64,000 nt of DNA from Bacteroidota bacterium (GTDB lineage Bacteria > Bacteroidota > Bacteroidia > NS11-12g > UBA955). The stretch lies in the NCBI GenBank assembly GCA_024103355.1, contig JAGFIU010000043.1, positions 2,102 through 66,101 of the forward strand, given 5' to 3'. A program made the position numbers and the translations under genes. The notes beneath the pieces were generated by a model. It saw only the letters and a program-made list of their open reading frames with translations. It did no database searches and was not told where the DNA came from. Below are positions 6,536 through 46,112 of the stretch, piece by piece (position 1 is the first letter of the stretch; the number at the start of each line of letters is the position of its first letter).

Positions 6536-6552
6536 TTGAATAAAGGTTAATA

Positions 6553-7215: not shown

Positions 7216-7220
7216 TGTTA

Positions 7221-7805: not shown

Positions 7806-7829
7806 TTTTCAAATCATTTTAAGTGTGAA

Positions 7830-9185: not shown

Positions 9186-9212
9186 TGTATATCGAATGAA
9201 AAATTTTAAAAA

Positions 9213-12371: not shown

Positions 12372-12405
12372 TTAGTTTCTATGAAATGATTAGTTGATAA
12401 TTATA

Positions 12406-18510: not shown

Positions 18511-18522
18511 TGTTATTAATTG

Positions 18523-20343: not shown

Positions 20344-20393
20344 ATATATTGTCTAAAATAATTGTTTCTAATAAGTTTAAGATAGTCTTTGAT

Positions 20394-24049: not shown

Positions 24050-24973
24050 ATGACAATCCGAGTCGAGAACCTGACTAAGATATATGGACCCCAAAAAGCG
24101 GTTGATAATATCAGTTTTGAGCTTAAGAAAGGCCAAATAGTAGGTTTTTTAGGACCTAATGGAGCAGGCAAAAGCACCACAATGAAAATGCTTACAGGCT
24201 TTATTCCTCCCAGTTCGGGAAATGCCTATATTGACAATATCAATGTGGAAGAACAACCTCTGATAACCCGCTCAAGGATTGGTTATTTACCCGAGCACAA
24301 CCCGCTTTACTTGGATATGTATATACGGGAGTATCTGCGTTTTATGGCGGAGATAAACAACGTGAAAAATCCCAAAAAGAGAACGGAGGAATTGATAGAA
24401 CTCACGGGTTTAACCTTGGAGAGGAAAAAGAAAATAGGACAACTCTCAAAAGGATATCGCCAGCGTGTGGGATTGGCACAAGCATTGATTCATAACCCTG
24501 ATGTATTAATCTTGGATGAACCAACTTCAGGCTTAGACCCCAATCAAATCGGAGAAATCAGAAAACTCATTCTGGAAATCGGTTCAGAGAAAACAGTTTT
24601 ACTTTCTACTCATATAATGCAAGAGGTAGAAGCGATTTGTCAAAGGACAATCATCATAAACCGAGGTAAGATTGTGGCAGATGCAGCAACAACTGAATTG
24701 GGCAAGAGAAATGATACAGATATTGTTATTTATGTTGAGTTTTCCAAAGAGATTTCAGAGTCAGACTTGCGCAAGATTCCCGAAGTAAAAAATGTTTCCA
24801 AAGGCTCTCAACCCAATTCATGGCATATCAATACTACCGAATCTCAGTCATGTAAAATTGCTCTCAATAAACTGATAGCAGGTGTTGGCGGGTATATTTT
24901 AGAACAGAAAGAAGAAAAACAAAGTTTAGAAGATATTTTCCAAAAACTAACTCGGAATGTGGACGATTTATAA
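24050..24973 (+). CDS. gldA: ABC transporter ATP-binding protein, GldA-like (gliding motility)
   Basis: 307 aa with Walker A (GPNGAGKST), the signature LSKGYRQR and Walker B (LILDEP). It is collinear with gldF/gldG-like genes through overlapping stop/start codons. Confidence 0.65.
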   Translation: MTIRVENLTKIYGPQKAVDNISFELKKGQIVGFLGPNGAGKSTTMKMLTGFIPPSSGNAYIDNINVEEQPLITRSRIGYLPEHNPLYLDMYIREYLRFMAEINNVKNPKKRTEELIELTGLTLERKKKIGQLSKGYRQRVGLAQALIHNPDVLILDEPTSGLDPNQIGEIRKLILEIGSEKTVLLSTHIMQEVEAICQRTIIINRGKIVADAATTELGKRNDTDIVIYVEFSKEISESDLRKIPEVKNVSKGSQPNSWHINTTESQSCKIALNKLIAGVGGYILEQKEEKQSLEDIFQKLTRNVDDL

Positions 24974-25691
24974 AAAAGAAATCAGAAGTTTTTTAAGCTC
25001 ACTCATTGCTTATGTAGTGATTGCAGTCTTTTTAATTGTAACCGGTATGTTCACTTGGTTGTTCAAAGACACCAGCGTTCTAGACAGTGGCTATGCAAAC
25101 CTTGACCCACTGTTTTCGATCGCACCGATTATTTTTATCTTTTTGGTTTCAGCAATTACCATGCGTAGTTTTTCTGAAGAGCGCAAGAGCGGCACTATTG
25201 AAACTCTGACCACAAGACCTGTTTCAGATATGTCAATCATAATGGGTAAATATTTTGCAGGACTAACCTTGGTATTATTTTCCATACTTCCAACCCTGCT
25301 CTATTATTACTCCGTAAACAAATTATCTATTAATCCCGAACAGACCGGTATTGACAAAGGAGCAACCTTAGGTTCCTATATCGGCTTATTATTACTTGGG
25401 GCGGTATATGTAGCTATTGGCACATTTGCCTCTGCATTGAGCGACAATCAGATTATTGCCTTTTTATTGTCAATGTTCCTATGCTTCTTTTTCTTCATTG
25501 CATTTGACTTTCTTTCGGATTTAGAGTTTTTGAAAAACTCTGATTTTTCAACAGAATGGCTCGGTATCAACTACCACTATCGTTCAATCAGTAAAGGAGT
25601 AGCAGACACCAGAGATTTAATTTACTTTCTGTCTTTGACCATTTTATTTCTTGGTTTCACTAAATTTATTTTTGGCAGCCGTAAGTGGTAA
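24957..25691 (+). CDS. gldF: ABC-2 type permease, GldF-like
   Basis: 244-aa six-TM ABC-2 permease. It overlaps gldA by 17 nt and gldG by 7 nt. Confidence 0.6.
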   Translation: MWTIYKKEIRSFLSSLIAYVVIAVFLIVTGMFTWLFKDTSVLDSGYANLDPLFSIAPIIFIFLVSAITMRSFSEERKSGTIETLTTRPVSDMSIIMGKYFAGLTLVLFSILPTLLYYYSVNKLSINPEQTGIDKGATLGSYIGLLLLGAVYVAIGTFASALSDNQIIAFLLSMFLCFFFFIAFDFLSDLEFLKNSDFSTEWLGINYHYRSISKGVADTRDLIYFLSLTILFLGFTKFIFGSRKW

Positions 25692-27484
25692 TCAATATGA
25701 GTAAGAAAAGAACACATCGAATTAAGAGTTTAATTGACCTTACGATTGTAATTGCAATCGTTGTGATTGCAAACCTTCTTTCTGCACAGTATTATACCAA
25801 GTTTGACCTTACCAAAGAGAAGCGATACACCTTGAGTGAAACATCCAAAAAACTTGCTAAGAGTGTAAATGACTATATATACATCAAAGTGTATTTGAAT
25901 GGAGAGTTAAGTTCAAAGTTTAAACAACTCAAAAATGCCACATTGGACATGCTGACAAACTTTAGGGAAGCATCCGGGAACAAGATTGAATATGAATTTA
26001 TTGACCCATTTGCAGGCAAGGACAACAAAGAGAAGCAGCAGATTCTACAAGATTTTGAACAAAAAGGCATTCCTCCGTACGATGATGTTGATGATGAAGA
26101 TATAGAATCACAAAAGCGCAATTTGATTATTCCGGGTGCTGAAGTATTTTACGGGACAGGAAAGAGTTTTGTAATCAATCTTCTCAAGACCGAATTGGGA
26201 CAAGCCAATGAAGAAAACATCAACCAATCCATTGAAAATCTAGAATACGAAATAGCACATGCCATTCGCAAATGTAAGGCAGACCAAAGTAAACGTATTG
26301 GATTTATAATAGGTCACGGAGAATTGAACGAACTACAACTGTACGATCTTAAAAAAGAGCTTGGCAGTTTTTATCGTTTGGACAATCTCAATATTGACCT
26401 TCGAGATTCAGCAGCCATTGCACTCTATGCAGACAAATTCACTGAAAATGATGAAGAGAATGCAAAGATTATCCTAAGCGGTTTGCAGAATCGTATTAAT
26501 CAATATGATGCAATTGTAGTTGCCAAGCCCCGTGTCGATTTGACACGTGAAGAAGCATTTCTAATTGACCAGTACATGATGCAAGGTGGCAAAAGCCTAT
26601 GGTTTATTGATGCACTACAAGCTGAAATGGATTCAATGAGCAAAACCGGCAGAATGGTTGCCGTTGATTACCCTTTAGAAAACCTGCGAGAGTTGCTTTT
26701 TCACTACGGAGTTAGAGTGAATGTGGATTTACTGCAAGATCTTCGTCGTTGTAATGACATTGCATTACGCGATCCATATTCCGCCAATAGCTATCGCAAT
26801 TTCCCATGGGTATATTTCCCTGTATTTACCGCACATCCGACATTATCCAAACATCCTATTAACCGTAATATCGAAGGAGTTTGGTCTCAATTTGGTGGAA
26901 CGATTAAGATATTAAACAAGGACAACATAAAGGCAACACCCCTGCTCATTAGTTCTGATTTAACTAAAATTTCCAATGCACCTGCACTCGTTGAGTTCAG
27001 TATTATTGATAAAATACGGATGAATGACAGAACCTTTTTAGCAACTTTTAATTCAGGGCCTCAGGTTGCAGGGGTTTTGTTAGAAGGTACATTCAAAACA
27101 GCCTTTGCACGCAGAAATGTCCGGTCCGATTTACCATTTATAGAAAGTGGAAAAGGCAGTATTATCGTTATTGCAGATGGAGATATTGCCAGGAATCATG
27201 TCAGCAGCCAAGGGGGGTATCTTGAACTTGGAAAGGATTTTATTACAGGAAGATTTTTTGGAAATAAAAAATTCTTGTTGAACTGTTTCGATTACTTACT
27301 TGATGATTCCGGATTAATCGAAATACGCTCTAAAGAAATCATACTGCGTTTGCTTGACAAAGAAAAAGTGAAAGAGGAGCGAACCTATTGGCAATTTTTT
27401 AATCTCGGGTTTCCGGTATTATTAATTCTCTTATTTGGGGTTGTTAATGCCTTGTTGAGAAGAAGAAAATATGCGCACACTTAG
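25685..27484 (+). CDS. gldG: GldG-like ABC-associated gliding motility auxiliary protein
   Basis: 599 aa with an N-terminal TM, a large extracytoplasmic domain and a C-terminal TM (..GFPVLLILLFGVVNALLRRRK). The size and topology match GldG. Confidence 0.6.
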   Translation: MVINMSKKRTHRIKSLIDLTIVIAIVVIANLLSAQYYTKFDLTKEKRYTLSETSKKLAKSVNDYIYIKVYLNGELSSKFKQLKNATLDMLTNFREASGNKIEYEFIDPFAGKDNKEKQQILQDFEQKGIPPYDDVDDEDIESQKRNLIIPGAEVFYGTGKSFVINLLKTELGQANEENINQSIENLEYEIAHAIRKCKADQSKRIGFIIGHGELNELQLYDLKKELGSFYRLDNLNIDLRDSAAIALYADKFTENDEENAKIILSGLQNRINQYDAIVVAKPRVDLTREEAFLIDQYMMQGGKSLWFIDALQAEMDSMSKTGRMVAVDYPLENLRELLFHYGVRVNVDLLQDLRRCNDIALRDPYSANSYRNFPWVYFPVFTAHPTLSKHPINRNIEGVWSQFGGTIKILNKDNIKATPLLISSDLTKISNAPALVEFSIIDKIRMNDRTFLATFNSGPQVAGVLLEGTFKTAFARRNVRSDLPFIESGKGSIIVIADGDIARNHVSSQGGYLELGKDFITGRFFGNKKFLLNCFDYLLDDSGLIEIRSKEIILRLLDKEKVKEERTYWQFFNLGFPVLLILLFGVVNALLRRRKYAHT

Positions 27485-31343: not shown

Positions 31344-31422
31344 AATTAGTGTATTTAGAATTTAATTTGGTAAAATAGATTATTGAAATACAGAGACATG
31401 AAATTTTGTCATCATCAATCTC

Positions 31423-33753
31423 TTATTCCTTCACAATCTTGTTGACTTGTCCGGCTATGTTTATGAAGTAAATTCCGCTTACTAATCCTGACAAATCAAT
31501 TTCTAGTATTCTTTTTTCTAATTTGCCTTGCATAACCAATCTCCCTTGTACATCGGTAATCTTATATTCCTCTCCTACTTTCCCCTCGATTTTTGTCAAT
31601 CCTGTTGTCGGATTGGGATATATTGTAAATGGTTGGTATAAATTAATCGGAAATTCAACAAATCTTATTGGACTCAACTCACTTTTGCCATCATAATCTA
31701 CCTGGCGAAGGCGATAATAATTTAGTTTCTTTGGGTTGGAATCAACTAATTGATAATAACTCATTGAATAGATTGTTCCTTTTCCTTGAACAATTCCAAT
31801 AGATTCCCAATTTATTCCATCGCTATTTCTCAATACTTCAAAATGACTATTGTTTACCTCTTGAGCAGTTTGCCATGTAAGCTCTACCCTTGTATTACTA
31901 AAGTCTGGCGTTGCCTGAAAATCAATGAGCTCCACAGGCAACGGAACTGGACCACCCCCTATTGCAAAAGGTGAAAAGGCGCCATTGTAGCCAGTATGCG
32001 TCAAAGTTGTCCCACTTGCACTGCCACTGCCCGATGTCGCTATCTCCCATGCACTTATGCCTGAATTGTAGTGGTTGAGTGTGGGTGTTGCCAACAACGC
32101 TGACTCCTCTCCCGAATTCCAATAAAATTTAAAATCTACTCCACTGCCTCCATTCGCACTGGCTTTGTCTATATCCCATGTACGTTTTACGTGAGGGGGT
32201 ATCAATACACTCCCCGTCAATCCATCTTCATAAGCCTCATCCAATATCCTGATACTAAAAACATCGGCAGAACCTGTGTTGTTTTTTATCTCAATAGGAT
32301 TGTATGCACTGTTACCTACAGGGAACAACAAGGTAGCGCCATTAGCCACATTCATCTTGAGTTTACCGGTTCCGGTTGTTTTCACATAACCTGTTCCGAT
32401 ATTGCTTAGTCCGGTCACTGTCAGATTGTAATTTCCTAAGACAATCTTCTTACCCGAATTAATCATATTGATTACTCCCACTGTTCTGTCTTGGTCTAAT
32501 TCCAAATCCCTGACTACAGTACTGTGAAATTTAAAATTATCACCGGATGCAGGTAAGCCTCCCTTGTACCAATTTCCCGACTTTGACCAATCATTGTCGG
32601 TTGTACCTATCCACTCACATGGGCAATTGGAAACATCTTTACCATTATCACTAATCGTCCAACTCTTGGTAGTGGCTAAATAGTCACGAGCAGATTGAGC
32701 ATATGCTGCGTATTTGATACTTGCAGCTCCTAAGGTTATATTGCTTGGAGCTGTACCTCCCGTTGCCCAACCTATCAAGGTAGCTCCATAATTTGAACAA
32801 TCCATTCCTGAATTACTAAACATACTTACTAAACTTGTTACACTTAACAAATTCCAATTACCTAAATTCTGATTGAAATTACTCGCATTATAAAACATAA
32901 AATTCATATTGGTAACCGCGCCCGTACTCCAACTACTTATATTTCCATTGAAAGAACTTGCATTGCGAAACATAGCACTCATATTAGTTACCTTTGACAC
33001 ATCCCAAGAATTCAAATCTTGGTTAAAACTACTAGCATCATTAAACATTGAATTCATATTGGTGACAGAACCCGTACTCCAAGCGTCTATATTTTTATTG
33101 AAAGAACTTGCATTGCGAAACATAGCACTCATATTAGTTACCTTTGACACACCCCAAGAATTCAAATCTTGGTTAAAACTACTAGCATCATTAAACATAT
33201 AACTCATATCGGTCACAGAGTCAGTTTTCCAACTGCTTATATTTCCATCGAAGGAACTTGCTGAAGAAAACATAGAACTCATATTAGTTACCTTCGACAC
33301 ATCCCAAGAATTCAAATTTTGATTAAAATTACTTGCAATATAAAACATAGCATTCATATTGATTACTGAGCCCGTATTCCAATTGCTAATATCCGCATTG
33401 AAGGAACTTGCTGAAGAAAACATAGAGCTCATATCGGTTATACCTTCTGTATGCCAATTCCAATTTGCGCTTGAACCTTTTAGATTTGTGCAAGATGCAA
33501 ACATATTTGAAAGGTTTGTAACTTTTGCCAAAACCGGAGTATCTGTGGCGGTAATATCCATTCGCGAGCATCCATAAAAAGATTTCACAAAACTCGACCA
33601 TGTACTATCTCCCCATTGGGTGATTAGCTTGAGCGAATCTTTCTGTCCTCCATTATTAAAATAGATTTGCGGGAAAGACCCGTGAATCTCAACCTTATAT
33701 AATTTATCCGCGGTTCCAGTTGTAACAGTGAACGGGCCCGAGCCGGATAACAC
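31423..33753 (-). CDS. DUF285/BspA-type 26-residue-repeat surface protein with a T9SS type-A C-terminal sorting domain. The ORF as called starts at an internal GTG.
   Basis: About 10 tandem 26-aa repeats (..SVTNMSAMFRNASSFNQDLNSWDVSKV..). The C-terminal Por-secretion tail is YPNPTTGLTKIEG...GIYFINIAGQVNKIVKE. The same frame stays open upstream to an in-frame TAA at 33865..33867. Confidence 0.7.
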   Translation of the reverse strand: MLSGSGPFTVTTGTADKLYKVEIHGSFPQIYFNNGGQKDSLKLITQWGDSTWSSFVKSFYGCSRMDITATDTPVLAKVTNLSNMFASCTNLKGSSANWNWHTEGITDMSSMFSSASSFNADISNWNTGSVINMNAMFYIASNFNQNLNSWDVSKVTNMSSMFSSASSFDGNISSWKTDSVTDMSYMFNDASSFNQDLNSWGVSKVTNMSAMFRNASSFNKNIDAWSTGSVTNMNSMFNDASSFNQDLNSWDVSKVTNMSAMFRNASSFNGNISSWSTGAVTNMNFMFYNASNFNQNLGNWNLLSVTSLVSMFSNSGMDCSNYGATLIGWATGGTAPSNITLGAASIKYAAYAQSARDYLATTKSWTISDNGKDVSNCPCEWIGTTDNDWSKSGNWYKGGLPASGDNFKFHSTVVRDLELDQDRTVGVINMINSGKKIVLGNYNLTVTGLSNIGTGYVKTTGTGKLKMNVANGATLLFPVGNSAYNPIEIKNNTGSADVFSIRILDEAYEDGLTGSVLIPPHVKRTWDIDKASANGGSGVDFKFYWNSGEESALLATPTLNHYNSGISAWEIATSGSGSASGTTLTHTGYNGAFSPFAIGGGPVPLPVELIDFQATPDFSNTRVELTWQTAQEVNNSHFEVLRNSDGINWESIGIVQGKGTIYSMSYYQLVDSNPKKLNYYRLRQVDYDGKSELSPIRFVEFPINLYQPFTIYPNPTTGLTKIEGKVGEEYKITDVQGRLVMQGKLEKRILEIDLSGLVSGIYFINIAGQVNKIVKE

Positions 33754-33867
33754 TCCTGACCAACCATTGTTAGAGGCATTCCCTACCTCTTCCCAATAGA
33801 CCTTAAAGTTATAACTGCTTCCTCTCGTAGGGATAATTATCTGTCCACTACTGTTGGCTCGCCATTA

Positions 33868-33975
33868 TACAATAAACGGATCTAATGCCCTTGCATCTGA
33901 TAGTTTTAGTAACAAGAGCAATAACAATCCAAATCGAAAAAAAGTGCGATGATTAAATAACCAAATTATTTTCAT
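33868..33975 (-). other. 36-codon signal-peptide ORF in frame with the BspA-like CDS and separated from it by a single TAA
   Basis: MKIIWLFNHRTFFRFGLLLLLLLKLSDARALDPFIV, then TAA, then the same frame continues as WRANSSGQIIIPTRGSSYNFKVYWEEVGNASNNGWSG into the 31423..33753 ORF. Confidence 0.45.
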
Positions 33976-34138
33976 AAAGTCTATATTTTAGGATTGCGCA
34001 AATATAATCTCACTTTTATTACACAATATTTTATAAATACTTTTTTTTAATACCTTTTTAGTCATCCCAATAGTTAAATTAATAAAACGAGTCCAAACAT
34101 AGCCAAGCATAGTTAGAGCAGTTATGCTTTATTGAAAA

Positions 34139-34176
34139 AGAGCCATTAGGGAAGCTTCCCTAATGGCTCTTTTTTA
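34139..34176. terminator. Bidirectional rho-independent terminator
   Basis: Perfect 32-nt palindrome agagccattagggaagcttccctaatggctct, flanked by A5 upstream and T6 downstream. Confidence 0.75.
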
Positions 34177-34196
34177 TTCTTTTATTTATAAATGAA

Positions 34197-34319
34197 TTAT
34201 TCCTTCACAATCTTGTTGACTTGTCCGGCTATGTTTATGAAGTAAATTCCGCTTACCAATCCTAATAATTCAACAAAAGCTATCGTAATGTTTGTGCATG
34301 AAATATGGAAAAACAAACC
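34197..34319 (-). pseudogene. Orphan 3' remnant of a T9SS type-A CTD gene (last 40 codons plus stop, no start codon)
   Basis: Translates as GLFFHISCTNITIAFVELLGLVSGIYFINIAGQVNKIVKE*. Bases 34197..34256 are identical to 31423..31482, the 3' end of the BspA-like gene. An upstream in-frame TAA lies at 34320..34322 and no ATG is present. Confidence 0.55.
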
Positions 34320-34341: not shown

Positions 34342-34349
34342 TATCTTTG
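34342..34349 (+). promoter_or_regulatory. Candidate -7 promoter element (TAnnTTTG) for the 2475-aa gene
   Basis: The sequence tatctttg lies about 22 nt upstream of ATG 34372. Confidence 0.3.
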
Positions 34350-34368: not shown

Positions 34369-37300
34369 GTGATGGCTCTAAGAAAAACATTTATTTTGTT
34401 ACTATTATCAAGTATTCTTATTGGCATCAGCCGGCAAGCAAAGGCACAGTGCGTTGCTGATTACAGCATCATTTCTCGCAGTTGCGACAAAGACACCGTT
34501 CATTTTTCCTTTACCGGCAACGGGAAAAAGTTTCAATGGGACTTTGATGATCCTGCTTCTGGTGTTAGAAACTCTGACACTCTCAGCAATCCAAAACATC
34601 AATTTACTTCAGCAGGTTCCTATTATGTCAGATTGGTTGTTTTTGACTCCGCATGCACTGATACCGTTACCAAATTAGTACAGATATACACAAATCCAAC
34701 CATTGCTTATTCATACTCTAATAATTGTAAAAATCTGATTTCCAAATACAATTCTTCGATTACCATTGATTCGGTTGATTCCATCAGACAGATTTATTGG
34801 TTTTTGAACAATGTACTTATTGATTCAGGAAGCAACATCTCTCACATATTTTCAGACACTGGGATAATAAACCTATCCACAGTTGTTGTTACCGGGGAGG
34901 GATGTACTGACAGCTTTAATAAACCTATAAAGGTATTCCCGGCCCCTGTTATAGAATCAGACAAGTCAAGTGCATGTGAAGATAAGGATATTAATTTCAA
35001 TCTCAAATCCGGTTTTGTACCTGAAATTAAAAATTACAAATGGAATTTCGGTGACGGCTCAATCAGCAGTCAAGCCTCACCTAAATATCAATTCTCTAAT
35101 GGTGGGCTTTACCCTGTTTCGCTTTTGCTAACCTATTCAGACAGCAGCTCCTGTTTATCAAACGCTGATTCAATCAAGATAACAAACAAACCCAATACCG
35201 CATTTCGTCTTTTGAGTGATAGCGTTCAATGTTTTCAAGGAAATCAATTTTGTTTTGAATTTTTGGGCAGGGAAAAGAATTTGAGTTATCGTTCTGTCAT
35301 ATTTGGTGATGGCAATAAGAACAACACTTTCCCATTGACAGACAGCACACTTTATTACTCATACAACGACAGTTTAGGCAGAGTTTATTCAATAACTTAT
35401 GAAGCTATTGACTCAAACGGTTGTTCAAACACAACAACCATTGACAGCTTAATAACACTTCACCCTAAGATCAATTTATTATTTGGTTACAGTAGAACTC
35501 TTGGATGTTTCAGCACTCCTGTATCATTCACAAATTACAGCAACACCACACCTCCTAGCATTATAAAATTCAAATGGGATTTTGGTGACAGCACCCTTGA
35601 CTCTACATCGTGGAATCCAAGTCATACTTATACACAAAACGGAATATTCTCGGTTTCGCTCGAAGTTCTGAGTGACAAGGGTTGTCAAGTGAAAACAACT
35701 TACAACAAAATCATCGAAAATGTAAACTTCAAAGCAGATACTCACTTGGACAGTGTCATTAGTTTTTGTAGAAGCGACAACAAATTTTTCTATAAACAAA
35801 CCCCGATACTCGGTGCCAGCGTACGATGGTATTGGGGAGATGGTGACACCTCTTACACATGGAGTGTAAACAAACATTACAATAACCCGGGTACATATTA
35901 TCCAAGAATAAGAATCTGGGCTTCTAACTGTATTGTTGATACTGTTTTCGATACGATAACCATTACAGGGCCTCGTGCTTTAGCAAGCAATATAATCAAC
36001 CGATATCAATGTCAAATCAAAGACACTATATACTTTACAAACAGCAGTTTATTCGATTTTAACAAAAGCAGAAGTACATTTTGGGATTTTGGTGATATTT
36101 ATGCACCAAGTTGTACGACAAACCTCGCAAAGGGTATCAATGTAGGTATGAATTGTCGATATAGCACCGACAGCATTTTAACCCAACACTATTACACCCC
36201 CGGCAAAGAGCAGTGTTACTATACAAAATTGGTTGTAAGTGATTCCATAATAGGTTGTGCGGACTCAACGTATATAAGCCTTCCGCTAACAGCACCCAAA
36301 GCGGATATAGACCTCTTAGCCACTCCTCCTCGATTAGGAATGAGTCTTAACAAAAATAGAACTTGCCTGAGTGAAGAAGGAGACTATGTCAATGTCTTAG
36401 TTCTAAACTTAAATAACACACAGCCTGCTTGTGCCAGACAACGATGGTGGGTGATGTGGGACTCTCTTGGTGCACGCCAATCAGGCAGCTTTGATTCACA
36501 TTGGGAATCTTATGCCGACTCGCATTACTATAGTTTTGCAAATAAACCTGCCGACACAAATGGATATGTAACTATCGGATTGATTATTGAGAATGGTAGC
36601 GACTCTAGCAACAACGTTTGCAGAGATACGGCATGGTATCACCATTTTTTGAAATTTGAAATTTATGACCCTGAATTTGTTTCAGACTATGACTCAACTG
36701 TACAGTACTGCAAAGGTTCAACTTTTACTTTTCGTTTAAAGGATACAACACAAAAAGCACTTTCTAAAGTAATATGGGATTGGGCTGACGGGAGTTTGTC
36801 TCAACTAACATCAGGAAACCTTACGGCACCTATCAAACACACATTCTATAAGCCCGGAATATACAAAGTTATTGTAACTGTGATTACTGACTCCGGTTGT
36901 ATTGCAACTTATTCAAAGAGAATCGAAGTAGGCTATAACATCAATTTTGGCGTAAGTAATGTTTATTCGTCTTCGGGGCAACGATTTTGTGAGAATACCA
37001 AAATACCCTTATCGTTTGATGTCGGTTATATTGGCACTACACGCAATGAATGGCATGATACCATGCGTTTGAAAGCCGGTAAAGAAAAAATCAGGTGGGA
37101 TATGGGAGACGGTCTTGGTTATCAGGACTTGGGATTTCCGCCTTTTTCCTATCAATACAACAAAGGAGGTTATTATAAAATATCCTTGATAGCTGAAGAC
37201 AGTGTAGGCTGTATGGATACAATGACAGTTCCCGATGCCATTCTTATTACTCATATCAAGTCAAAAATTACAACCTCACAAGACAGCTTTGTTTGTGCAC

Positions 37301-40300
37301 AAGGGATTCAATTCAATTCTAATGTTTCTCAATATGACAGCACAAGCACAGTTCCTCAAGGCAGTGCGGAAACTATTACCTATCGTTGGGAATTTGCTCC
37401 GGGCATACCCTACAACACGTTATCCGATCCTTTTGTTCTGTTGAAAGAAGGTGATTACAATGTTAAACTAAAGGTTACCAATACAACGGGATGTGAAGAC
37501 TCCTCTTTTAAAAGTATAAGCATCATCGGTCCAAAAGCAGAGTTTGTATTTCTTTCCGACTCTATCGGTTGTCAACCCCTGGAGGTTACTTTCAAAAACA
37601 AAAGTAAAGGTGCCACAAATTATATTTGGAGATTCAAAGACAGCAGTGGAAATGTGTTGAACACCGTCTCCTCCGGCAATGTTAGCTTTACTTATCCTCA
37701 GTTTGGAAAATATTATCCGTCTCTTACTGTTCAAGGAACTTATATCAAAAATGGAGTAAGTATTACCTGTTCCAATACTTTTCCTGACTCTATTCCTAAG
37801 CCATTTAGGGAAATTACAGTATTGGAAATCCCCAAACCTGATTTCACCCATGTTACCAACTGTTTCAGCAAAACCACACAGTTTACTAACAAGACTTATA
37901 CAGGTAGTTCAACTCTGAACTCTGTTTATTGGGATTTTGGAGACGGCAGCACTTCTACTGACAACAATCCTTCTCATCAATACAGTGATACCGGAAGATA
38001 TACAATAACATTAATTGCTTATTCTGCAAACGGCTGCTCAGATACATTAAAACGAATGATTGTCATATCCCCTACTCCAATCCCCAATTTTAATTTTACA
38101 AACCAATGTGCCGGAGTTCCCATTCAATTCAAAGATTCAACAAAAACGTTTAATGATGTTATTGTCAATTGGAGCTGGAGTTTTGGCGATAGCACTTTCA
38201 GCAATCTGAATATTGAAAATAAAAGCTATGCAAAAGGAGGTTCTTACAATGTTAAACTGGTCGTTACCAATATGGCAGGTTGTTCCGATTCTGTTTCTAA
38301 AATAGTAAAGGTTCATTATAAACCTCTTGTTAATTTCTCGGTTCCACATACTTGTTCCCATCAAGACTTGGCAATTTCAAATCTGAGCAGTGTTGCAGAC
38401 ACTACACTCTCTTATCAATGGAATTTTGCAGACGGGACATATTCTACAGATTTTGCTCCCTCAAAATCATATACAAATAACGGCAATTACAAAATCAAAC
38501 TGCAAGCATTGAGTGGCTTTGGCTGCGTTGATTCTATTACAAAAAACATTCAAATAAACCCAACGCCTTATAGCAATTTTAATATCAATAGTGCTACACA
38601 GTGTTTTGCCGAACATGAGTTTGTGTTTAGCAATACAACATCACTTGTATCAGGTACATTTTCTTCACTCTGGAAGTTTGGAGATGGGAATACGAGCGTT
38701 ATCAAATCTCCCACACATCAATATACAAGCATAGGCTCCTATGCCATTGACTTGATTACCACCTCTGATTTTGGTTGTAAAGACACCATTTCTAAAAGCG
38801 TGACAGTGCAATCCAATCCATCAGCCAATTTCACTATTGACAAAGTTCAACAATGTTTGCTCGGCAATGCCTTTACTTTTACTGATATTACTGGTACTCC
38901 TAACAGAACATGGCAAATCAAAGGAATTAACTATGCAGATAGTGTACTCAAATACAGTTTTGTTGACACCGGAGTTCACACAATTCGCATGGTTGCCATA
39001 TCAACAAATACTTGTACTGATACAATCTATCGAACGGTAGAAGTGCTTCCCATGCCGATTGCAAAAATTGGTGTAAACAGCCCGGGACAATGCGTAAACA
39101 ACCAAAATTTCTCCTTTTCCGACTTAACAACACTTGCCAAATATCCATCATGGACTCCTTCTTGGGATTTCGGAAACGGGAAAACCGCTGGAATTTCCAA
39201 CCCGACCACAAGTTATGACACTGCCGGATTTTATACTGTTACGCTAAAAGTGCTTTCAAGCAAAGGTTGTGCTGATACCACTCAATACAAAGTTGAGGTT
39301 TATTCTAAACCAACACCTGATTTTGCTATCAATGATGACGAGCAATGTCAATTGAACAACTTGTTTGTGTTCACAAATAAGTCAAAAGTTGCAAAAGGCT
39401 CACTCTCTTATCAATGGACATTTGGTGATGGGGCAAGCAGTATTCTAACCAATCCAAAACACAGCTATACACTAAAAGGAAATTTACCTGTTAAACTCAT
39501 TACGACCAGTTCCTTAGGTTGTGTGGACTCGATTTCGCGAACCATTACTTTGCGAGCAAAACCAACCGCTTCAATAGCAGTAAACAAAGCACAACAATGT
39601 ATCAATCCCAATTTGTTCACTTTCAGCAGTAAGAGTCAAAGCAATGAGGGTTCTTTTGTTTCTTACGAATGGAACATTCCTTCACAGCCAATAAGCAGTT
39701 TGCAAACCAATGACACATTTTTCTATAGTTTTCCAAACTATGGAGCATTCCCTGTTCATCTCTATGTTACAACGAGTTTCGGCTGCGCTGATTCTACTCA
39801 AATGTCTGTTGAAGTTTATCCAAAACCCAAATCTTTGTTTTCTATCAATGATTCTACACAATGCCTTAACAAACAACTATTTTCTTTCAGCAACTTAAGC
39901 ACAATTCCCTACGGTACATTGAGCTATCAATGGACTTTTGGAGATGGCAAAGGCTCTACCGCTAAACATCCTTCTTATACCTTCAACAACGCTGATACTT
40001 TTATTGTAAAAATGATTGCAACCTCAAACAATAATTGCAAGGATACTACCTCTTTGCCCGTGATTGTATATCCCAAACCCTTTGTTAATTTTAACATCAA
40101 CGACTCAGGACAGTGTCTGACAGGTAATCTCTATGAATTAAACAATCTTAGCAACATTTCTTATGGCACTTTATCATATTTCTGGGATTTAGGAAATGGT
40201 AAAACATCAACTCAAAAAGACACACAAATCAGCTACAATGCTTATGGTACATATAAGATTTTATTACAATCAACCTCTAACTTTGGTTGTATAGATAGCG

Positions 40301-41796
40301 TTTCGTATAAAGTAAAAGTTTATCCAAAGCCTACACCTGACTTTGCTATCAACAAAGAGAAACAATGTTTGAATGAGAACCAATATAAAATCAGCTCTCG
40401 TTCCAATATTGCTTATGGTACTTTGACCTATCAATGGCAATTAGGTGATGGCGCAACAGCAAGCGGTGACTCTATAATTCATCATTACAACAATATAGGC
40501 ACCTATACTATCAAAATGGTTTCAACCTCAAACTTTGGTTGTGTGGATTCAAGCAGTAAAGAAATCAGGATTTGGGCAAATCCTCAAAGTGCTTTTGCCG
40601 CCAACAATCCTGCACAATGTATTAATACACAAGATTTTCAATTTATCAATCAATCCCGCATTAATGAAGGCGCTATCGATTCACAGACATGGAATTTTGG
40701 CAACGGAAATTTCAGTAACTCACAATCTCCAAACCAATTTTTCAAAAGTACCGGACGTTATCGAATCAGTCTGATATCTCATTCTGACAGCGGCTGTTTG
40801 GATTCTGCTGTCAACTATATTGATATTTATCCAAAACCCGAAGCCGCTTTTGATATCAATGACACATCACAGTGTTTATATACCAACCTATTTGAGTTTA
40901 CTGACCAATCAAAAGACACATTGAACCTCATCAATTATCGTTGGATATTAGGTAATGACAGTTCTGCTAACTCAAAAAATACATCCTTTAAATTTAATAA
41001 AATTGGTTTTCACGACATAGAACATCAAGTAATATCAGAATTGGGTTGTGCAGACACCATAATCAGAAAGATATATGTAAAGCCAATGCCTGACCCGAGT
41101 TTTGAAAAATTGGATATTTATTATTGTAATAACAAAGGGCCATTTTCATTCAACACAACCACACCGGGTGGAACTTTCTACGGTAAAAACATAGAAAACA
41201 ATCTATATATGCCTCAGATATTGTGGAGAGACACCATCGAATATAAAGTAACCGTAGATGGATGTTTGGATTCAAGTTCTCAGGTTACACAGGTCTATCC
41301 GGCTCCTTCTGTCTTTCTCGGCTCAGACACCATGCTTTGCAAATATGAATCATTGGAATTTGATGTTAGCTTTTGGAACAGCACTTACGAATGGCAGGAT
41401 CGAAATAAAGAGGCAAAATACCTAGTTAAACGTCCCGGATTATACAAGGTTACCGTAACCAATTTTTGCGGTTCTGTTTCGGATTCTGTTTATGTAGAAT
41501 ATGGGGAATATAATTGCCGATTATATCTGCCTACATCTTTTAGCCCAAACAAAGACGGGCTTAATGATTATTACAACCCCATTACGTATGATGTTGAAAG
41601 TTTTCATATCCAGATTTTCAACCGCTGGGGGCAAATGGTTTATGACGGCACACAAAACGACCCCGGATGGGATGGCTCCTATATGGGAATGCCTTGTGAA
41701 CCCGGAATGTTTATTGTCCAAGTTTCGTATTCATACAAATTCAAAAACGAATACCGAAATATTACAGAAAGCTCCCCACTATACTTGATGAAATAA
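34369..41796 (+). CDS. Giant cell-surface protein with about 23 tandem PKD domains and a T9SS type-B (gliding motility-associated) C-terminal domain. SprB/adhesin-like.
   Basis: 2475 aa with a signal peptide. The W-x-F-G-D-G...N-P-x-H-x-Y...G-x-Y PKD signature recurs about every 90 aa. The C-terminal motif SFSPNKDGLNDYY..IQIFNRWGQMVY..WDG matches the type-B CTD. The probable true start is ATG 34372. Confidence 0.8.
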   Translation: MMALRKTFILLLLSSILIGISRQAKAQCVADYSIISRSCDKDTVHFSFTGNGKKFQWDFDDPASGVRNSDTLSNPKHQFTSAGSYYVRLVVFDSACTDTVTKLVQIYTNPTIAYSYSNNCKNLISKYNSSITIDSVDSIRQIYWFLNNVLIDSGSNISHIFSDTGIINLSTVVVTGEGCTDSFNKPIKVFPAPVIESDKSSACEDKDINFNLKSGFVPEIKNYKWNFGDGSISSQASPKYQFSNGGLYPVSLLLTYSDSSSCLSNADSIKITNKPNTAFRLLSDSVQCFQGNQFCFEFLGREKNLSYRSVIFGDGNKNNTFPLTDSTLYYSYNDSLGRVYSITYEAIDSNGCSNTTTIDSLITLHPKINLLFGYSRTLGCFSTPVSFTNYSNTTPPSIIKFKWDFGDSTLDSTSWNPSHTYTQNGIFSVSLEVLSDKGCQVKTTYNKIIENVNFKADTHLDSVISFCRSDNKFFYKQTPILGASVRWYWGDGDTSYTWSVNKHYNNPGTYYPRIRIWASNCIVDTVFDTITITGPRALASNIINRYQCQIKDTIYFTNSSLFDFNKSRSTFWDFGDIYAPSCTTNLAKGINVGMNCRYSTDSILTQHYYTPGKEQCYYTKLVVSDSIIGCADSTYISLPLTAPKADIDLLATPPRLGMSLNKNRTCLSEEGDYVNVLVLNLNNTQPACARQRWWVMWDSLGARQSGSFDSHWESYADSHYYSFANKPADTNGYVTIGLIIENGSDSSNNVCRDTAWYHHFLKFEIYDPEFVSDYDSTVQYCKGSTFTFRLKDTTQKALSKVIWDWADGSLSQLTSGNLTAPIKHTFYKPGIYKVIVTVITDSGCIATYSKRIEVGYNINFGVSNVYSSSGQRFCENTKIPLSFDVGYIGTTRNEWHDTMRLKAGKEKIRWDMGDGLGYQDLGFPPFSYQYNKGGYYKISLIAEDSVGCMDTMTVPDAILITHIKSKITTSQDSFVCAQGIQFNSNVSQYDSTSTVPQGSAETITYRWEFAPGIPYNTLSDPFVLLKEGDYNVKLKVTNTTGCEDSSFKSISIIGPKAEFVFLSDSIGCQPLEVTFKNKSKGATNYIWRFKDSSGNVLNTVSSGNVSFTYPQFGKYYPSLTVQGTYIKNGVSITCSNTFPDSIPKPFREITVLEIPKPDFTHVTNCFSKTTQFTNKTYTGSSTLNSVYWDFGDGSTSTDNNPSHQYSDTGRYTITLIAYSANGCSDTLKRMIVISPTPIPNFNFTNQCAGVPIQFKDSTKTFNDVIVNWSWSFGDSTFSNLNIENKSYAKGGSYNVKLVVTNMAGCSDSVSKIVKVHYKPLVNFSVPHTCSHQDLAISNLSSVADTTLSYQWNFADGTYSTDFAPSKSYTNNGNYKIKLQALSGFGCVDSITKNIQINPTPYSNFNINSATQCFAEHEFVFSNTTSLVSGTFSSLWKFGDGNTSVIKSPTHQYTSIGSYAIDLITTSDFGCKDTISKSVTVQSNPSANFTIDKVQQCLLGNAFTFTDITGTPNRTWQIKGINYADSVLKYSFVDTGVHTIRMVAISTNTCTDTIYRTVEVLPMPIAKIGVNSPGQCVNNQNFSFSDLTTLAKYPSWTPSWDFGNGKTAGISNPTTSYDTAGFYTVTLKVLSSKGCADTTQYKVEVYSKPTPDFAINDDEQCQLNNLFVFTNKSKVAKGSLSYQWTFGDGASSILTNPKHSYTLKGNLPVKLITTSSLGCVDSISRTITLRAKPTASIAVNKAQQCINPNLFTFSSKSQSNEGSFVSYEWNIPSQPISSLQTNDTFFYSFPNYGAFPVHLYVTTSFGCADSTQMSVEVYPKPKSLFSINDSTQCLNKQLFSFSNLSTIPYGTLSYQWTFGDGKGSTAKHPSYTFNNADTFIVKMIATSNNNCKDTTSLPVIVYPKPFVNFNINDSGQCLTGNLYELNNLSNISYGTLSYFWDLGNGKTSTQKDTQISYNAYGTYKILLQSTSNFGCIDSVSYKVKVYPKPTPDFAINKEKQCLNENQYKISSRSNIAYGTLTYQWQLGDGATASGDSIIHHYNNIGTYTIKMVSTSNFGCVDSSSKEIRIWANPQSAFAANNPAQCINTQDFQFINQSRINEGAIDSQTWNFGNGNFSNSQSPNQFFKSTGRYRISLISHSDSGCLDSAVNYIDIYPKPEAAFDINDTSQCLYTNLFEFTDQSKDTLNLINYRWILGNDSSANSKNTSFKFNKIGFHDIEHQVISELGCADTIIRKIYVKPMPDPSFEKLDIYYCNNKGPFSFNTTTPGGTFYGKNIENNLYMPQILWRDTIEYKVTVDGCLDSSSQVTQVYPAPSVFLGSDTMLCKYESLEFDVSFWNSTYEWQDRNKEAKYLVKRPGLYKVTVTNFCGSVSDSVYVEYGEYNCRLYLPTSFSPNKDGLNDYYNPITYDVESFHIQIFNRWGQMVYDGTQNDPGWDGSYMGMPCEPGMFIVQVSYSYKFKNEYRNITESSPLYLMK

Positions 41797-41810: not shown

Positions 41811-44800
41811 TTATCGCAGCAATTCTATTTTCCCGGTAAAGACCTCTTCTTCTGTAACAACACGAACAAAATAAACGCCTTGTGCAAATGCCGACAGGTT
41901 GATGAAATTATCGTTTTTCAATAACTCTGATACATTAGAACTGAATATTGCCGTTCCCTTTGAATCATATATTTTCAACTCACCGCTTTGAATACCGTTT
42001 TTGAATTCAACTTTAAAAATTCCGGTACCGGGGTTAGGATAAATCAATAACCCGTTTTGTGAAAAAGTTTGAGAAATCCCGAGATTTGTTACAGTGTGTG
42101 AAAACGAGCTGCTACACTCGCAACCTTCAGGAGTTCTGATATTTAATTTCACATTATAATTACCATCCTCTTTAAATTGATGCGTAGGCTTTTTTGCATC
42201 AGAACTATTTCCATCACCAAAGTCCCAAGTATATTCACCATCAAAATCTTGTGCTTCAAACTCATAGCCTCTGTGACCGGGAATCCATATACTATTGATA
42301 GAAAAATCACAAATTGGTGTTACCCCTACCCTAACTTTTTTGTAGGCCGTATCGGAACAAACTGCATTATTTGCAAAAGCAACTAACATCACATTATAAT
42401 TGGTTGCAAGATTAATTTTATAGATATGATTAGGAACAAATACATCATTATATACGGTATCTCCCATATCCCATTTATACTTAGCAATTCCAAAGTTGAC
42501 AATAGTTTTGTTTATTGGTTGAAAAGAAGTTTGAGTACACAAAGTATCTTTCATAGTAAACTGGGCATCCGGCTTATGTCCTGCACCGATTTGCATTGAA
42601 GCGTTATTACTACATCCATTAGAGAAGGTTACTTGTAAATTGACCGTTTTAAGTCCAACATTTCCGAATGTAACGATTGGGGTTGAATCGTAATAATTTT
42701 TCCCATCAATTTTCCACTTAAAGCTTGCACTTTCACCTGCCGGAATCACAACATTTCCCTTAAACAAAGTAGGGTTATTAATACAAGCATCTGAAGTGCT
42801 AATCGATATTTGGGGACTTATTCCTACTAAAATTGATTTTATGATAGAATCTTTACATCCATTGACTGTATTCACAAGCAATTTCACCGACTTACTACCT
42901 TCGGATTGAAAATTATAGGTAGGATTGTTTTGTAAAGACTTTCCTTCACCGGTTCCAAAATGCCACTCACTACTCCAAGTTGAGAAAGCGATTGTAGTTT
43001 TATTAGTAAATCCAACCGGAGTTCCTAAACAAATGGGGCTTACAAAATCAAAATCAGTTTTTGGAACCGGGAATAGAGTCAAGACTTTTGAGAAAGTATC
43101 CTCACACCCACTCTCTGAAGATGCGATTAATCTAATTGCATAATCCCCTGCAGACGTGTAGGTTATTAATGGAGATGTGGTGTCTGAGGTCTGTCCATTC
43201 CCAAAATCCCAACGGTATAAAGTAGTATCTGACTTCCCAATGGTTTTGTTTTGAATGTTAACTTGGCTTCCAAAGCACGCATTGTCCACTGAAAATTTTG
43301 CTTCAGGGTATTCATTTACATGAATGACTTTTGTAAGCGATTTTTCAAATCCAAACACACTTGTGGTTGTTTTAAGAGTGACAGAGTATTTACCCGGGGA
43401 AGTGTATGTATGTCTTGGATTGTATGATTTTGAGGTATTCCCATCTCCAAAATCCCAATCGTAACTAAGTGTTCCGCTTTTAACAAATGATTTATTTTCG
43501 AAAAAAATCTCGGTCGACACACAAGCCTTACTCACAAGAAAATCCGGTTTCCCGTAGGGAGATACAAATATCTTAATACTGATGGTAGAATCACAATTTG
43601 TCAAATCATTATGGATGACGAGTCTTGCTTCAAGCATACTATCAATAACAAAATCCGTTGGACTTATTAACCATTGTCCCTTATTTCCACTGCTTGGTAG
43701 CGGATAATAGTTAGATAAAAGTAACGTATCCATCATCGAATTCAGCACATAGGTTATTACAGAATAATTTGTCAGAGATAAAGGGAAATCAACATCAAAA
43801 CTCAAGGAATCTCCCGGAATGACAACATAATAGTCTCGTGTAGAATCAGGATCTAAACCTTTAGAATGAATACTCTTAGCAATTACAGCAGAAGTAATCC
43901 CTCTGCGAATATTTAGGTTAAAGACCAATGTATCATTACTATTATCATCATCATAATGCGAAATAAAAACTCTTAAAATGGAGTTATCAGGCTCTCCAAT
44001 CAAATCAAATTTTGGAAGTTTAAAGAATGTAGTATCATTTGCTTTAACAGTGTCTATTTCTATGAAGTCAATCGAATGTGAGTTTAAAGCATATCCAATC
44101 TTAGCATCAGTATAATCAAAATTGAATTTACTGATTATAAACCCTTCAAATTCAGGTTTAGATTCGGAGCAGATATCATAATCACCACCATTAAAATCTC
44201 CCATGAGCAAGAAATCGAAATCAACTTCAACCGCTCCAATATCCGGCTTTGAAGAATCTCGAGTAAAACCTAAAATATCATTTGTAATTCCATTTGGATA
44301 GGCAAAGGATTTATAAAAAGTACCTGAACTATTTAATGCCGGATTAAGAAAAGAAAGGTTATTCTTGCCACCATTAACAAATGCAGGGTCTGCATTGATA
44401 TTACTGTCTGCACCGGAGAGAAAATTAAGATTATTCACAGAAATTAAACTTTGTGGGTTATTGGCACCTTGTAAATAGTTGAGGGAGTATATGGCTGCAT
44501 TGTTTGAAGAAGTTGTGGGATTATAATACAGATTATTATTTTTAATCTCATACAAATATTGGAAGTTAGGTCCATTGTTATTTGCAGTCGAGGCTTTCAC
44601 ATTAAAATATGAATTATTATTTGAAAAAATCGTTTGAAGTTGTCTTGGGATAGTGGGATACAAAGGAATACTCTTACTCCCGGAAATGTTGAAATAGTCA
44701 TTTACAGTAACTGTACCCGGATATTGGGTGTAGTCAAATGACCTATAAAAAGTATTATTTATAATATCACCTGTGGTAGCATACCAATCTATAACAAATT

Positions 44801-46112
44801 TTGCCTCTCGAATCGGATTTGAGATAGGTGGATATGCTATGTTATTAGAGAAAACATTGTTTGTGAGATAAACGTTTTGTGCCAGATAGGCTGCAAATGG
44901 GTAAACATTGGCTTTATTATCGTACTTATTGCCTGAATAATTATTAACTACTTTATTATCTTCCACTCTAATAATATTAGTACCGTTATAACCGCTATGC
45001 ATATCTGATGTATTCCCTTCAGTTCTGGATATCGCGATACCATAAAAAGTGTGCGCATTATCAGTTCTGGAACTGTCGCCAATATTTTGAATTGTATTTC
45101 CAATAATCTCAATATCTTGGCTGGGATAAGCAGACAAATAAGGGTAATAGAGCTGGATTCCATAATAATAGGTATCGTCTTTATCATCTTGTATGGGTCC
45201 ATTGGTTGTTCTAACTATGGTATTATTGTTGTACTTTCCTCCACCGGATGCATAAGAATAAATTGCAACACCACTGGCATTAATGATTTTATTTCGAATA
45301 AAAGAATTGTTACCGGAATTTGATGTTCCATCACCTAATTCAAATATACCATATGTAGCTCCACGTCTGCCATTACCATCCAAAACACATATTATTTTGT
45401 TATTCTCAAAAAGATTCCCTTTTCCATTGGCATTTCTCACGTTGTGTTTTAGACTATTAACAGAATTACCAAAAACGACAATGGCTCCGGCATCTGAATA
45501 ATTGGAACGGTTAACTGACTCATCTTGGGTATGGTTAGTATTGATTGTAATCTTATCATAATTAAAGTTGTCATTAGTGATATTGCAATTTCTAAAAATA
45601 TTATAGTCTGCACCATCTGACAGAATCACAGTTTCTGACCAAAGTGTATTCCAATTAACAATTTGCAAACTGTCAAACACGAAATAATCAGCTCCTTTGA
45701 GCCAAAGTACATACTTTGCACTCGGATTAGGATTATAATAAAAATAAGGATAATTCCCTTTTACGACAACTCTTCGGGAGGAATTTAGGGAGTCGTGAGG
45801 TAATATTACGATTTGCTCATTAACAACCGAACTTATAATGTTGAGTACAATATCACCACTTCCGGTCACACCGGGACCCTGAACCGGGCCTCCGTCACTT
45901 CTACTCCCCAATGCAATATCATCAAAAAAAGATTGTAAGTTCGTATAGTTTGTCATACTTGCAGCACTACTTCCGTCCAATGTATAAGAATTGGAAGCAG
46001 AAAGCTGAGCGCGTGAAATTGTTGCATGAAGGATTAAGAAGATAACAACAGCAGCATGTTGAAGCAATCCATTTAGTTTTAAATTAAAGTATTTTTTTTT
46101 CATATATTGCAT
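41811..46112 (-). CDS. Large secreted protein with a parallel beta-helix (pectin-lyase-like) region, several PKD domains and a T9SS type-A C-terminal sorting domain
   Basis: 1433 aa with a signal peptide. There are N-terminal beta-helix-like NN(T/K)I repeats and PKD motifs (WDFGDGNTSKSYNPRHTYTSPGKYSV; WDFGNGQTSDTTSP). The C-terminal tail is LLIYPNPGTGIFKVEF...GVYFVRVVTEEEVFTGKIELLR. Confidence 0.75.
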   Translation of the reverse strand: MQYMKKKYFNLKLNGLLQHAAVVIFLILHATISRAQLSASNSYTLDGSSAASMTNYTNLQSFFDDIALGSRSDGGPVQGPGVTGSGDIVLNIISSVVNEQIVILPHDSLNSSRRVVVKGNYPYFYYNPNPSAKYVLWLKGADYFVFDSLQIVNWNTLWSETVILSDGADYNIFRNCNITNDNFNYDKITINTNHTQDESVNRSNYSDAGAIVVFGNSVNSLKHNVRNANGKGNLFENNKIICVLDGNGRRGATYGIFELGDGTSNSGNNSFIRNKIINASGVAIYSYASGGGKYNNNTIVRTTNGPIQDDKDDTYYYGIQLYYPYLSAYPSQDIEIIGNTIQNIGDSSRTDNAHTFYGIAISRTEGNTSDMHSGYNGTNIIRVEDNKVVNNYSGNKYDNKANVYPFAAYLAQNVYLTNNVFSNNIAYPPISNPIREAKFVIDWYATTGDIINNTFYRSFDYTQYPGTVTVNDYFNISGSKSIPLYPTIPRQLQTIFSNNNSYFNVKASTANNNGPNFQYLYEIKNNNLYYNPTTSSNNAAIYSLNYLQGANNPQSLISVNNLNFLSGADSNINADPAFVNGGKNNLSFLNPALNSSGTFYKSFAYPNGITNDILGFTRDSSKPDIGAVEVDFDFLLMGDFNGGDYDICSESKPEFEGFIISKFNFDYTDAKIGYALNSHSIDFIEIDTVKANDTTFFKLPKFDLIGEPDNSILRVFISHYDDDNSNDTLVFNLNIRRGITSAVIAKSIHSKGLDPDSTRDYYVVIPGDSLSFDVDFPLSLTNYSVITYVLNSMMDTLLLSNYYPLPSSGNKGQWLISPTDFVIDSMLEARLVIHNDLTNCDSTISIKIFVSPYGKPDFLVSKACVSTEIFFENKSFVKSGTLSYDWDFGDGNTSKSYNPRHTYTSPGKYSVTLKTTTSVFGFEKSLTKVIHVNEYPEAKFSVDNACFGSQVNIQNKTIGKSDTTLYRWDFGNGQTSDTTSPLITYTSAGDYAIRLIASSESGCEDTFSKVLTLFPVPKTDFDFVSPICLGTPVGFTNKTTIAFSTWSSEWHFGTGEGKSLQNNPTYNFQSEGSKSVKLLVNTVNGCKDSIIKSILVGISPQISISTSDACINNPTLFKGNVVIPAGESASFKWKIDGKNYYDSTPIVTFGNVGLKTVNLQVTFSNGCSNNASMQIGAGHKPDAQFTMKDTLCTQTSFQPINKTIVNFGIAKYKWDMGDTVYNDVFVPNHIYKINLATNYNVMLVAFANNAVCSDTAYKKVRVGVTPICDFSINSIWIPGHRGYEFEAQDFDGEYTWDFGDGNSSDAKKPTHQFKEDGNYNVKLNIRTPEGCECSSSFSHTVTNLGISQTFSQNGLLIYPNPGTGIFKVEFKNGIQSGELKIYDSKGTAIFSSNVSELLKNDNFINLSAFAQGVYFVRVVTEEEVFTGKIELLR

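Follow-up and report, generated by a model that had tools for sequence, protein, structure and literature searches.

Genes for type IX secretion system (T9SS) cargo proteins that carry a type-B C-terminal sorting domain (CTD) are 'usually clustered' with the PorP/SprF gene that goes with them (PMC10202324). In Flavobacterium johnsoniae, 9 of the 12 type-B cargoes are clustered in this way, while 3 are 'orphans', namely: Fjoh_1123, Fjoh_1720 as well as Fjoh_4934, which were shown experimentally to share one unlinked shuttle, Fjoh_1677 (PMC12618676). Here we describe a giant gene at positions 34369..41796 (+ strand) of a 64,000-nt stretch (the window) of contig JAGFIU010000043.1, from the metagenome-assembled genome (MAG) GCA_024103355.1 of an uncultured member of the Bacteroidota. 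Its product, hereafter the giant protein, is a type-B T9SS cargo made of PKD repeats, and it is an uncharacterised and ordinary addition to the known class of orphan type-B cargoes.

The giant protein and the three F. johnsoniae orphans, compared here by their described features, carry TIGR04131, the type-B CTD, at the very C-terminal end, lack an adjacent sprF/porP-like gene and are predicted adhesins; they differ in that the shuttle Fjoh_1677 is known and that the giant protein comes from an uncultured Bacteroidota MAG. SprB of F. johnsoniae, which is paired with SprF, is also a giant repeat protein and carries a Sec signal peptide as well as a type-B CTD. However, SprB has 6497 aa vs. the 2475 aa of the giant protein, and the giant gene has neither an adjacent sprF nor an sprCDBF operon. 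Multi-PKD proteins of the 'gliding motility-associated C-terminal domain' / CHU_C kind from environmental Bacteroidota (e.g. the large CHU_3220-type proteins of Cytophaga hutchinsonii) likewise combine a PKD array with PF13585, whereas the subfamily of the giant protein is distinguished by a conserved 234-aa two-domain module (see below).

By sequence profile, the closest solved structure is GhpA of Aureispira sp. CCB-QB1 (PDB 9flp and related); to our knowledge, the structure of no other type-B-like T9SS cargo has been solved. The two proteins share a homologous C-terminal sorting domain and pre-CTD immunoglobulin-like (Ig-like) unit, and both are beta-sandwich chains rich in Cys pairs or disulfides and in O-glycosylation motifs. 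In contrast, GhpA has 5898 aa, 52 Ig-like repeats, a heptameric assembly and a hook-forming N-terminal region, whereas the giant protein has a body of PKD units and no adjacent PorP or PorE gene. GhpA is a T9SS cargo whose stem consists of disulfide-rich, O-glycosylated Ig-like domains, and ghpA is followed downstream by PorP (ghpB) and PorE (ghpC) homologues (bioRxiv 10.1101/2024.01.29.577165). Since it has no linked partner genes and a different body, the giant protein is not a GhpA orthologue.

The giant gene is one intact open reading frame (ORF) of 2475 codons counted from a GTG at 34369, and it ends with the stop codon TAA (41794-41796). An ATG lies one codon after the GTG, at 34372, and is probably the translation start. 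Public gene callers start at this ATG and give a product of 2474 aa, MCO6495495.1 (100% identity), so that the 2475 aa of an earlier reading of the window, made from the letters alone (the sequence-only reading), hold as a codon count from the GTG. The deposited label is 'MAG: PKD domain-containing protein [Bacteroidetes bacterium]', and the protein is also found on a Logan contig. The gene is monocistronic, with opposite-strand genes on both sides (divergent upstream, convergent downstream). Horizontal transfer was considered and rejected, the G+C content of 0.36-0.39 being in line with that of the surroundings. The gene and its parts are as follows:

34369..41796, + strand: giant PKD-repeat type-B T9SS cargo gene (ORF, Pfam, NCBIfam, public record)
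34342..34349, + strand: candidate promoter -7 element TATCTTTG, 20 nt 5' of the start codon (read from the sequence)
34369..34446, + strand: Sec signal peptide, residues 1-26, (V)MALRKTFILLLLSSILIGISRQAKA then QC (read from the translation)
34447..37827, + strand: N-terminal half, residues 27-1153, about 12 divergent PKD-like units (own hidden Markov model (HMM), Pfam)
35971..36672, + strand: 234-aa module, residues 535-768, two elaborated beta-sandwich domains with 8 Cys (phmmer, AlphaFold2 (AF2))
37828..41082, + strand: regular array of 13 head-to-tail PKD units, residues 1154-2238 (own HMM, unit comparison)
41086..41517, + strand: two small Ig-like beta-sandwich domains before the CTD, residues ~2240-2383 (conservation, model)
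41518..41793, + strand: type-B T9SS C-terminal sorting domain, residues 2384-2475 (TIGR04131, PF13585)

The Bacteroidota -7 promoter consensus is TAnnTTTG, which the candidate element TATCTTTG fits; no -33 TTG was seen at the proper spacing to it when the sequence was read by eye. The signal peptide has the tail ISRQAKA, followed by QC. The cleavage site (AKA / Q) was placed by the A-x-A rule rather than computed, and it gives Gln as the predicted mature N-terminus.

The assignment to the type-B class, already made from the letters alone, is borne out by both family models. TIGR04131 matches residues 2387-2456 with 44.5 bits (cut-off 35; NCBIfam) and PF13585 (CHU_C) matches residues 2387-2454 with 44.6 bits (cut-off 27; Pfam). 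The conserved unit is longer than the sorting domain itself: the last 236 residues, i.e. the two Ig-like domains plus the CTD, are conserved over their full length in 46 homologues, and the model of this module (predicted local distance difference test (pLDDT) 91.5) consists of three beta-sandwich domains, two Ig-like followed by the CTD. Type-B CTDs are reported to require 150-235 aa in order to be secreted (PMC12618676, PMC10202324), in agreement with the length of the module.

When the profile of the 236-aa module was compared with solved proteins, one strong match was obtained, GhpA (E = 4e-53). The strongest single stretch lies at the GhpA C-terminus (chain residues 5805-5880, 37.6 bits), and the other stretches matched, numerous but weak, are repeats of the pre-CTD Ig-like unit. 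The second pre-CTD Ig-like domain of the giant protein shares homology with the units that are repeated in the GhpA stem, while similarity to GhpA outside the C-terminal module is weak (TMq 0.35).

The body of the giant protein is made of about 25 tandem PKD-like beta-sandwich units plus the two Ig-like domains. In Pfam, PKD_4 (PF18911) scores 573.5 bits over 17 stretches and PKD (PF00801) 305.8 bits over 13, with multiple PKD domains above the gathering threshold. An HMM that we built from six of the protein's own PKD units finds 22 units at a domain E ≤ 0.01 and 27 with the marginal ones, and the 'about 23' domains counted earlier are a fair number. In the N-terminal half, 9 of the approximately 12 units reach this threshold and the others are degenerate. 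The regular array consists of 13 contiguous units with a period of about 84 aa, which corrects the period of about 90 aa read at first. Most of these units start with P-x-P-x-x-F...QC, as had been noticed, and hold W-x-F-G-D-G; the run begins at about residue 1154, not at about 1130.

Each regular unit contains exactly two Cys, spaced by 53-62 residues (58 in most). The motif C-x-D-[ST]-[AILVMT] is found in 12 of the 13, and the whole protein has 53 D-[ST]-[AILVMT] sequons of the Bacteroidota O-glycosylation type vs. 10.3 ± 3.1 in shuffled sequences. These Cys pairs and sequons parallel the pairing of disulfides and O-glycans in the GhpA stem.

The array is old. Compared pair by pair, the 13 regular units are 15-48% identical as protein and 35-56% identical as DNA, neighbouring units (33% identical) are no closer than distant ones (31%), and Tandem Repeats Finder detects no DNA tandem repeat in the gene except a 17-nt microrepeat. 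Orthologues at 72, 67, 56, 48, 43 and 40% identity are 2449-2474 aa long, with unit starts within about 25 residues of those in the giant protein. The best match of a unit is its positional counterpart for 22 of 22 units in the 72% orthologue and for 21 of 22 in the 56% orthologue, and the identity to this counterpart is higher than that to the best paralogue inside the same protein for 21 units in the 72% and for 20 in the 56% orthologue. Because the unit layout is conserved position by position in the orthologues, the array was complete before these lineages split. Conserved length and layout at 40-72% identity also indicate purifying selection on the protein.

Recent tandem duplication was rejected on the same grounds, i.e. 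the lack of a Tandem Repeats Finder repeat, the low identity of the units and their positional orthology. Sequence comparison thus places the serial duplication that shaped the family, which the sequence-only reading had deduced from the regularity of the units, in ancient rather than late times. The number of regular units does vary in the wider family, from 13 here to about 17-21 in the members P0008, P0042 and P0009.

The 234-aa module in the N-terminal half is kept at the same position in 59 homologues (phmmer). Its AF2 model (pLDDT 88.7, predicted template modelling score (pTM) 0.81) contains two short helices besides the beta-sandwiches, and its matches in the PDB are generic FN3/PKD-like domains, none at E ≤ 0.001. 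Among 1.84 billion proteins, 156 cluster representatives match the module at E ≤ 1e-3; these include a second group, proteins of ~1260 aa in which the module occupies roughly residues 390-600. At E ≤ 1e-10, the giant protein itself is matched by more than 4800 proteins, and many of them are labelled 'gliding motility-associated-like protein'. The conserved module at ~535-768 is the mark of the giant protein's subfamily, which has no characterised member so far.

The sequence-only reading had reported no PorP/SprF-like gene beside the giant gene, and this was extended to the whole window. Of the 37 non-nested window ORFs with 120 aa or more, 36 were searched with Pfam (the 37th is ClpP by NCBIfam), and NCBIfam was run at E ≤ 1 on the ORFs without a Pfam family. 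PF11751 has no match among the 36 ORFs, TIGR03519 has none at E ≤ 1 among those without a Pfam family, and a six-frame tblastn of the window with a genuine PorP_SprF protein from the control locus (see below) gives a best E of 3, i.e. no match. The largest intergenic gap in the window is ~620 bp. A hidden PorP/SprF gene was also considered in the unannotated ORFs 14340-15359, 5159-6535 and 58464-59048, and none of them is PorP-like (E ≤ 1, sequences read). Any PorP/SprF-type partner must be encoded beyond the 64-kb window, as had been proposed.

The neighbourhoods of eight homologues were viewed as well, namely: P0002 (72%), P0003 (67%), P0004 (56%) and P0038 (40%), and the more distant family members P0042, P0009, P0015 and P0008. 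PF11751 is missing within 10 kb of all eight, and with the window 9 of 9 contexts lack PorP/SprF. The same look-up shows PorP_SprF (PF11751) directly downstream of a SprB-repeat giant (P0116), the positive control, and thus detects the gene where it is present. Orphan status is an old, family-wide property rather than the result of a local rearrangement. The expectation of an adjacent PorP/SprF gene is sound as a statement of what is usual (PMC10202324), but its absence is not unusual. As orphan cargoes are documented (PMC12618676) and all nine family contexts are orphan, the missing linked sprF-like gene is no anomaly.

We consider it likely that the giant protein is a surface fibre or adhesin that is stabilised by disulfides, bears O-glycans and is held by an unlinked carrier of the PorP/SprF type. 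The steps that follow are modelled on studies of F. johnsoniae, P. gingivalis and Aureispira. The protein would cross the inner membrane via Sec, one disulfide bond would lock each unit, and O-glycans would be added at its numerous D-[ST]-x sequons. The T9SS translocon (SprA/Sov) would recognise the last ~236 residues, after which an outer-membrane carrier of the PorP/SprF family would take the cargo and retain it on the surface with the CTD uncleaved; retention of this SprB-like kind is expected for the giant protein. The carrier would also set the behaviour of the fibre: with a twin-cysteine tail bonded to the GldK track it would be mobile, and with a PorE-like peptidoglycan anchor it would be static. 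Both ways of coupling have been described, to the GldK track by means of a C-terminal twin-cysteine (Cys-x-Cys) tail that the bond to GldK requires (PMC12635249), and to peptidoglycan by means of a PorE-like protein (PMC9143113). With ~28 domains at roughly 3.5-4 nm each, the filament would be about 100 nm long, which is an estimate rather than a computed value. The resemblance to GhpA supports, by analogy, a rigid extracellular fibre.

The type-A T9SS cargo genes on either side of the giant gene suggest that the organism has a T9SS; these two genes and a PorE-like OmpA protein (59145-60626) are the indirect signs of the system in the window. Several points weigh against the proposed arrangement. 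The T9SS core genes sprA, gldK-N and porV are absent from the 64-kb window; because only this window of the genome was viewed, and it holds neither a T9SS core gene nor a PorP/SprF gene, the carrier step is one that we infer outright. The disulfide bonds and the O-glycans are predictions from motifs only. Furthermore, no ligand-binding or enzymatic domain was found in the giant protein, which makes 'adhesin' a term by analogy alone. Fold searches with both models also returned no lectin, enzyme or other functional fold, the matches being generic Ig/FN3/PKD strings.

The genes and remnants around the giant gene that bear on these questions are as follows:

24050..27484, + strand: gldA, gldF and gldG, gliding-associated ABC transporter (NCBIfam)
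31423..33975, - strand: upstream neighbour, DUF285/PARCEL-repeat protein with a type-A CTD (Pfam, NCBIfam)
34133-34176, - strand: strong hairpin terminator next to the remnant
34188-34273, - strand: 86-nt remnant (39-aa ORF, 34197..34316), 91% identical to 31414-31499, ~100 bp upstream of the giant gene
41811..46112, - strand: convergent neighbour, 1433-aa PKD protein with a type-A CTD, 14 bp from the giant gene

The sequence-only reading was right about the convergent neighbour, whose product has four PKD stretches and a type-A CTD by both PF18962 (45.8 bits) and TIGR04183 (40.5 bits). In the upstream DUF285/PARCEL gene, the signal-peptide codons (MKIIWLFNHRTFFRFGLLLLLLLKLSDARALDPFIV, 33868-33975) are in frame with a 776-aa ORF and separated from it by a single TAA (33865-33867), which means either a nonsense-interrupted pseudogene or a sequencing error. 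Positions 31414-31499, of which the 86-nt remnant is a direct repeat, are the 3' end of this gene's type-A CTD. Taken together, the hairpin and the remnant (34133..34273) resemble what a former type-A cargo gene just upstream of the giant gene might have left behind. In this region, the public Logan contig stops within the 86-nt repeat, which looks like an assembly break.

The locus of the 72% orthologue (L002) is syntenic, in the order gldA-gldF-gldG … TraB-like, giant gene, TonB-dependent-receptor-like and glutamate-synthase-domain gene. L002 has neither of the type-A cargo genes found on the two sides of the giant gene in the window, and these are therefore insertions in the window's lineage. 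At another family locus (L003), the upstream slot holds other small Por_Secre_tail genes. T9SS cargo genes seem to use the slots on both sides of the giant gene as insertion sites.

The gldA, gldF and gldG genes are indeed in the window, as had been reported. GldF (306 bits, cut-off 288.5) and GldG (523.5 bits, cut-off 389.85) score above their cut-offs and GldA (398.9 bits, cut-off 402.6) just below; the nearest relatives of GldG are in Bacteroidota/Bacteroidia MAGs. The three genes lie on the same strand as the giant gene and ~7 kb upstream of it, with opposite-strand genes between, and are not co-transcribed with it. None of them occurs in the 10 kb on each side of the 56% orthologue, whose neighbourhood differs. 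Their proximity adds little to the case for gliding that had been built on them.

The sequence-only reading had gone further and proposed a candidate gliding adhesin with an SprF-like partner encoded elsewhere. In its full form, this reading makes the protein a SprB-class mobile adhesin, which would be loaded on the helical track, be functionally tied to gldA/F/G and have a dedicated SprF-like partner elsewhere in the genome. We regard this as unlikely. The type-B CTD is common to both proteins; the CTD of the orphan Fjoh_1123 brought a tagged reporter onto the gliding track, albeit in just 3% of cells, and all three orphan cargoes were placed in the track-directed group by the authors of that study (PMC12618676). 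In addition, gldA/F/G lie ~7 kb upstream both in the window and at the locus of the 72% orthologue. However, foci of the Fjoh_1123 CTD were mostly static and Fjoh_3952 is static (PMC12618676), the 56% orthologue sits elsewhere with gldA/F/G missing from its surroundings, and the lineage is uncultured. The giant gene is monocistronic rather than part of an sprCDBF-like operon, no sprF lies downstream of it, and the SprB repeat (PF13573) is not detected in the giant protein at E ≤ 0.01, the Pfam families found being PKD_4, PKD, ChitinaseA_N (which overlaps PKD units) and CHU_C only. The type of CTD is all that the protein has in common with SprB, and beyond it nothing supports the labels 'gliding' and 'SprB-class'.

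A somewhat less probable alternative, again by analogy, is that the protein might form a static, possibly oligomeric GhpA-like appendage that is anchored in the outer membrane and catches particles or cells without moving. No other solved structure matches strongly, and GhpA, the best match, has the CTD and the repeated pre-CTD Ig-like unit in common with the giant protein; intradomain Cys pairs and dense S/T glycosylation motifs are found in both proteins (bioRxiv 10.1101/2024.01.29.577165). Yet the PorP and PorE homologues that follow ghpA have no counterpart adjoining the giant gene, and the body and N-terminus of GhpA are distinct, with weak similarity beyond the C-terminal module. Least probable is that no PorP/SprF carrier is needed at all and that the protein is set free into the medium or is passed to PorV or some other pathway; the missing neighbour would then reflect a real difference in mechanism. 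Orphan status in 9 of 9 family contexts would fit such a route, but all type-B CTDs tested needed a PorP/SprF-family protein and the three F. johnsoniae orphans use an unlinked shuttle (PMC12618676, PMC9143113), and the CTD of the giant protein is a canonical, above-threshold TIGR04131 match. It is also rather improbable that the whole subfamily relies on a single dedicated and unlinked PorP/SprF shuttle in each genome, or that its members are self-assembling GhpA-like appendages anchored in a new way. If the one-shuttle version were true, track-loaded PKD fibres would be a second widespread class of mobile adhesins in uncultured Bacteroidota besides SprB.

For the fibre or adhesin on an unlinked carrier that we favour, the practical consequences are modest. 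The label of MCO6495495.1 can be changed to T9SS type-B (orphan) surface cargo, which has little importance beyond annotation. It is mildly useful that orphan status is conserved over the whole subfamily and is not a one-off rearrangement, which fits unlinked shuttles serving several orphans. The conserved 236-aa C-terminal module offers a convenient probe for such shuttles in uncultured Bacteroidota.

Other genes in the window were noted in passing. The 1229-aa protein encoded at 27592-31281 (- strand) has a TraB/PrgY/GumN domain at residues 34-298 and ~900 remaining residues without a family; its gene adjoins the giant gene in L002 and lies near it in L003. The OmpA-family protein encoded at 59145-60626 (+ strand) is a partial match to PorE (NF052230, 165 bits, cut-off 600) and likewise a partial one to the CHU_0125 family (190 bits, cut-off 620). 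PorE-like proteins partner PorP-like carriers in static anchoring, and no PorP gene lies beside this one; it is preceded by a gene for a 195-aa secreted protein without a family (58464-59051, + strand). Finally, two separate 2-oxoacid:ferredoxin oxidoreductase alpha/beta-like pairs (POR_N/POR + TPP_enzyme_C) are encoded on the - strand at 2163-5040 and 17458-22211, one of which adjoins a gene for a 605-aa flavoprotein / 4Fe-4S oxidoreductase, and an alternative complex III operon occupies 5156-14127.

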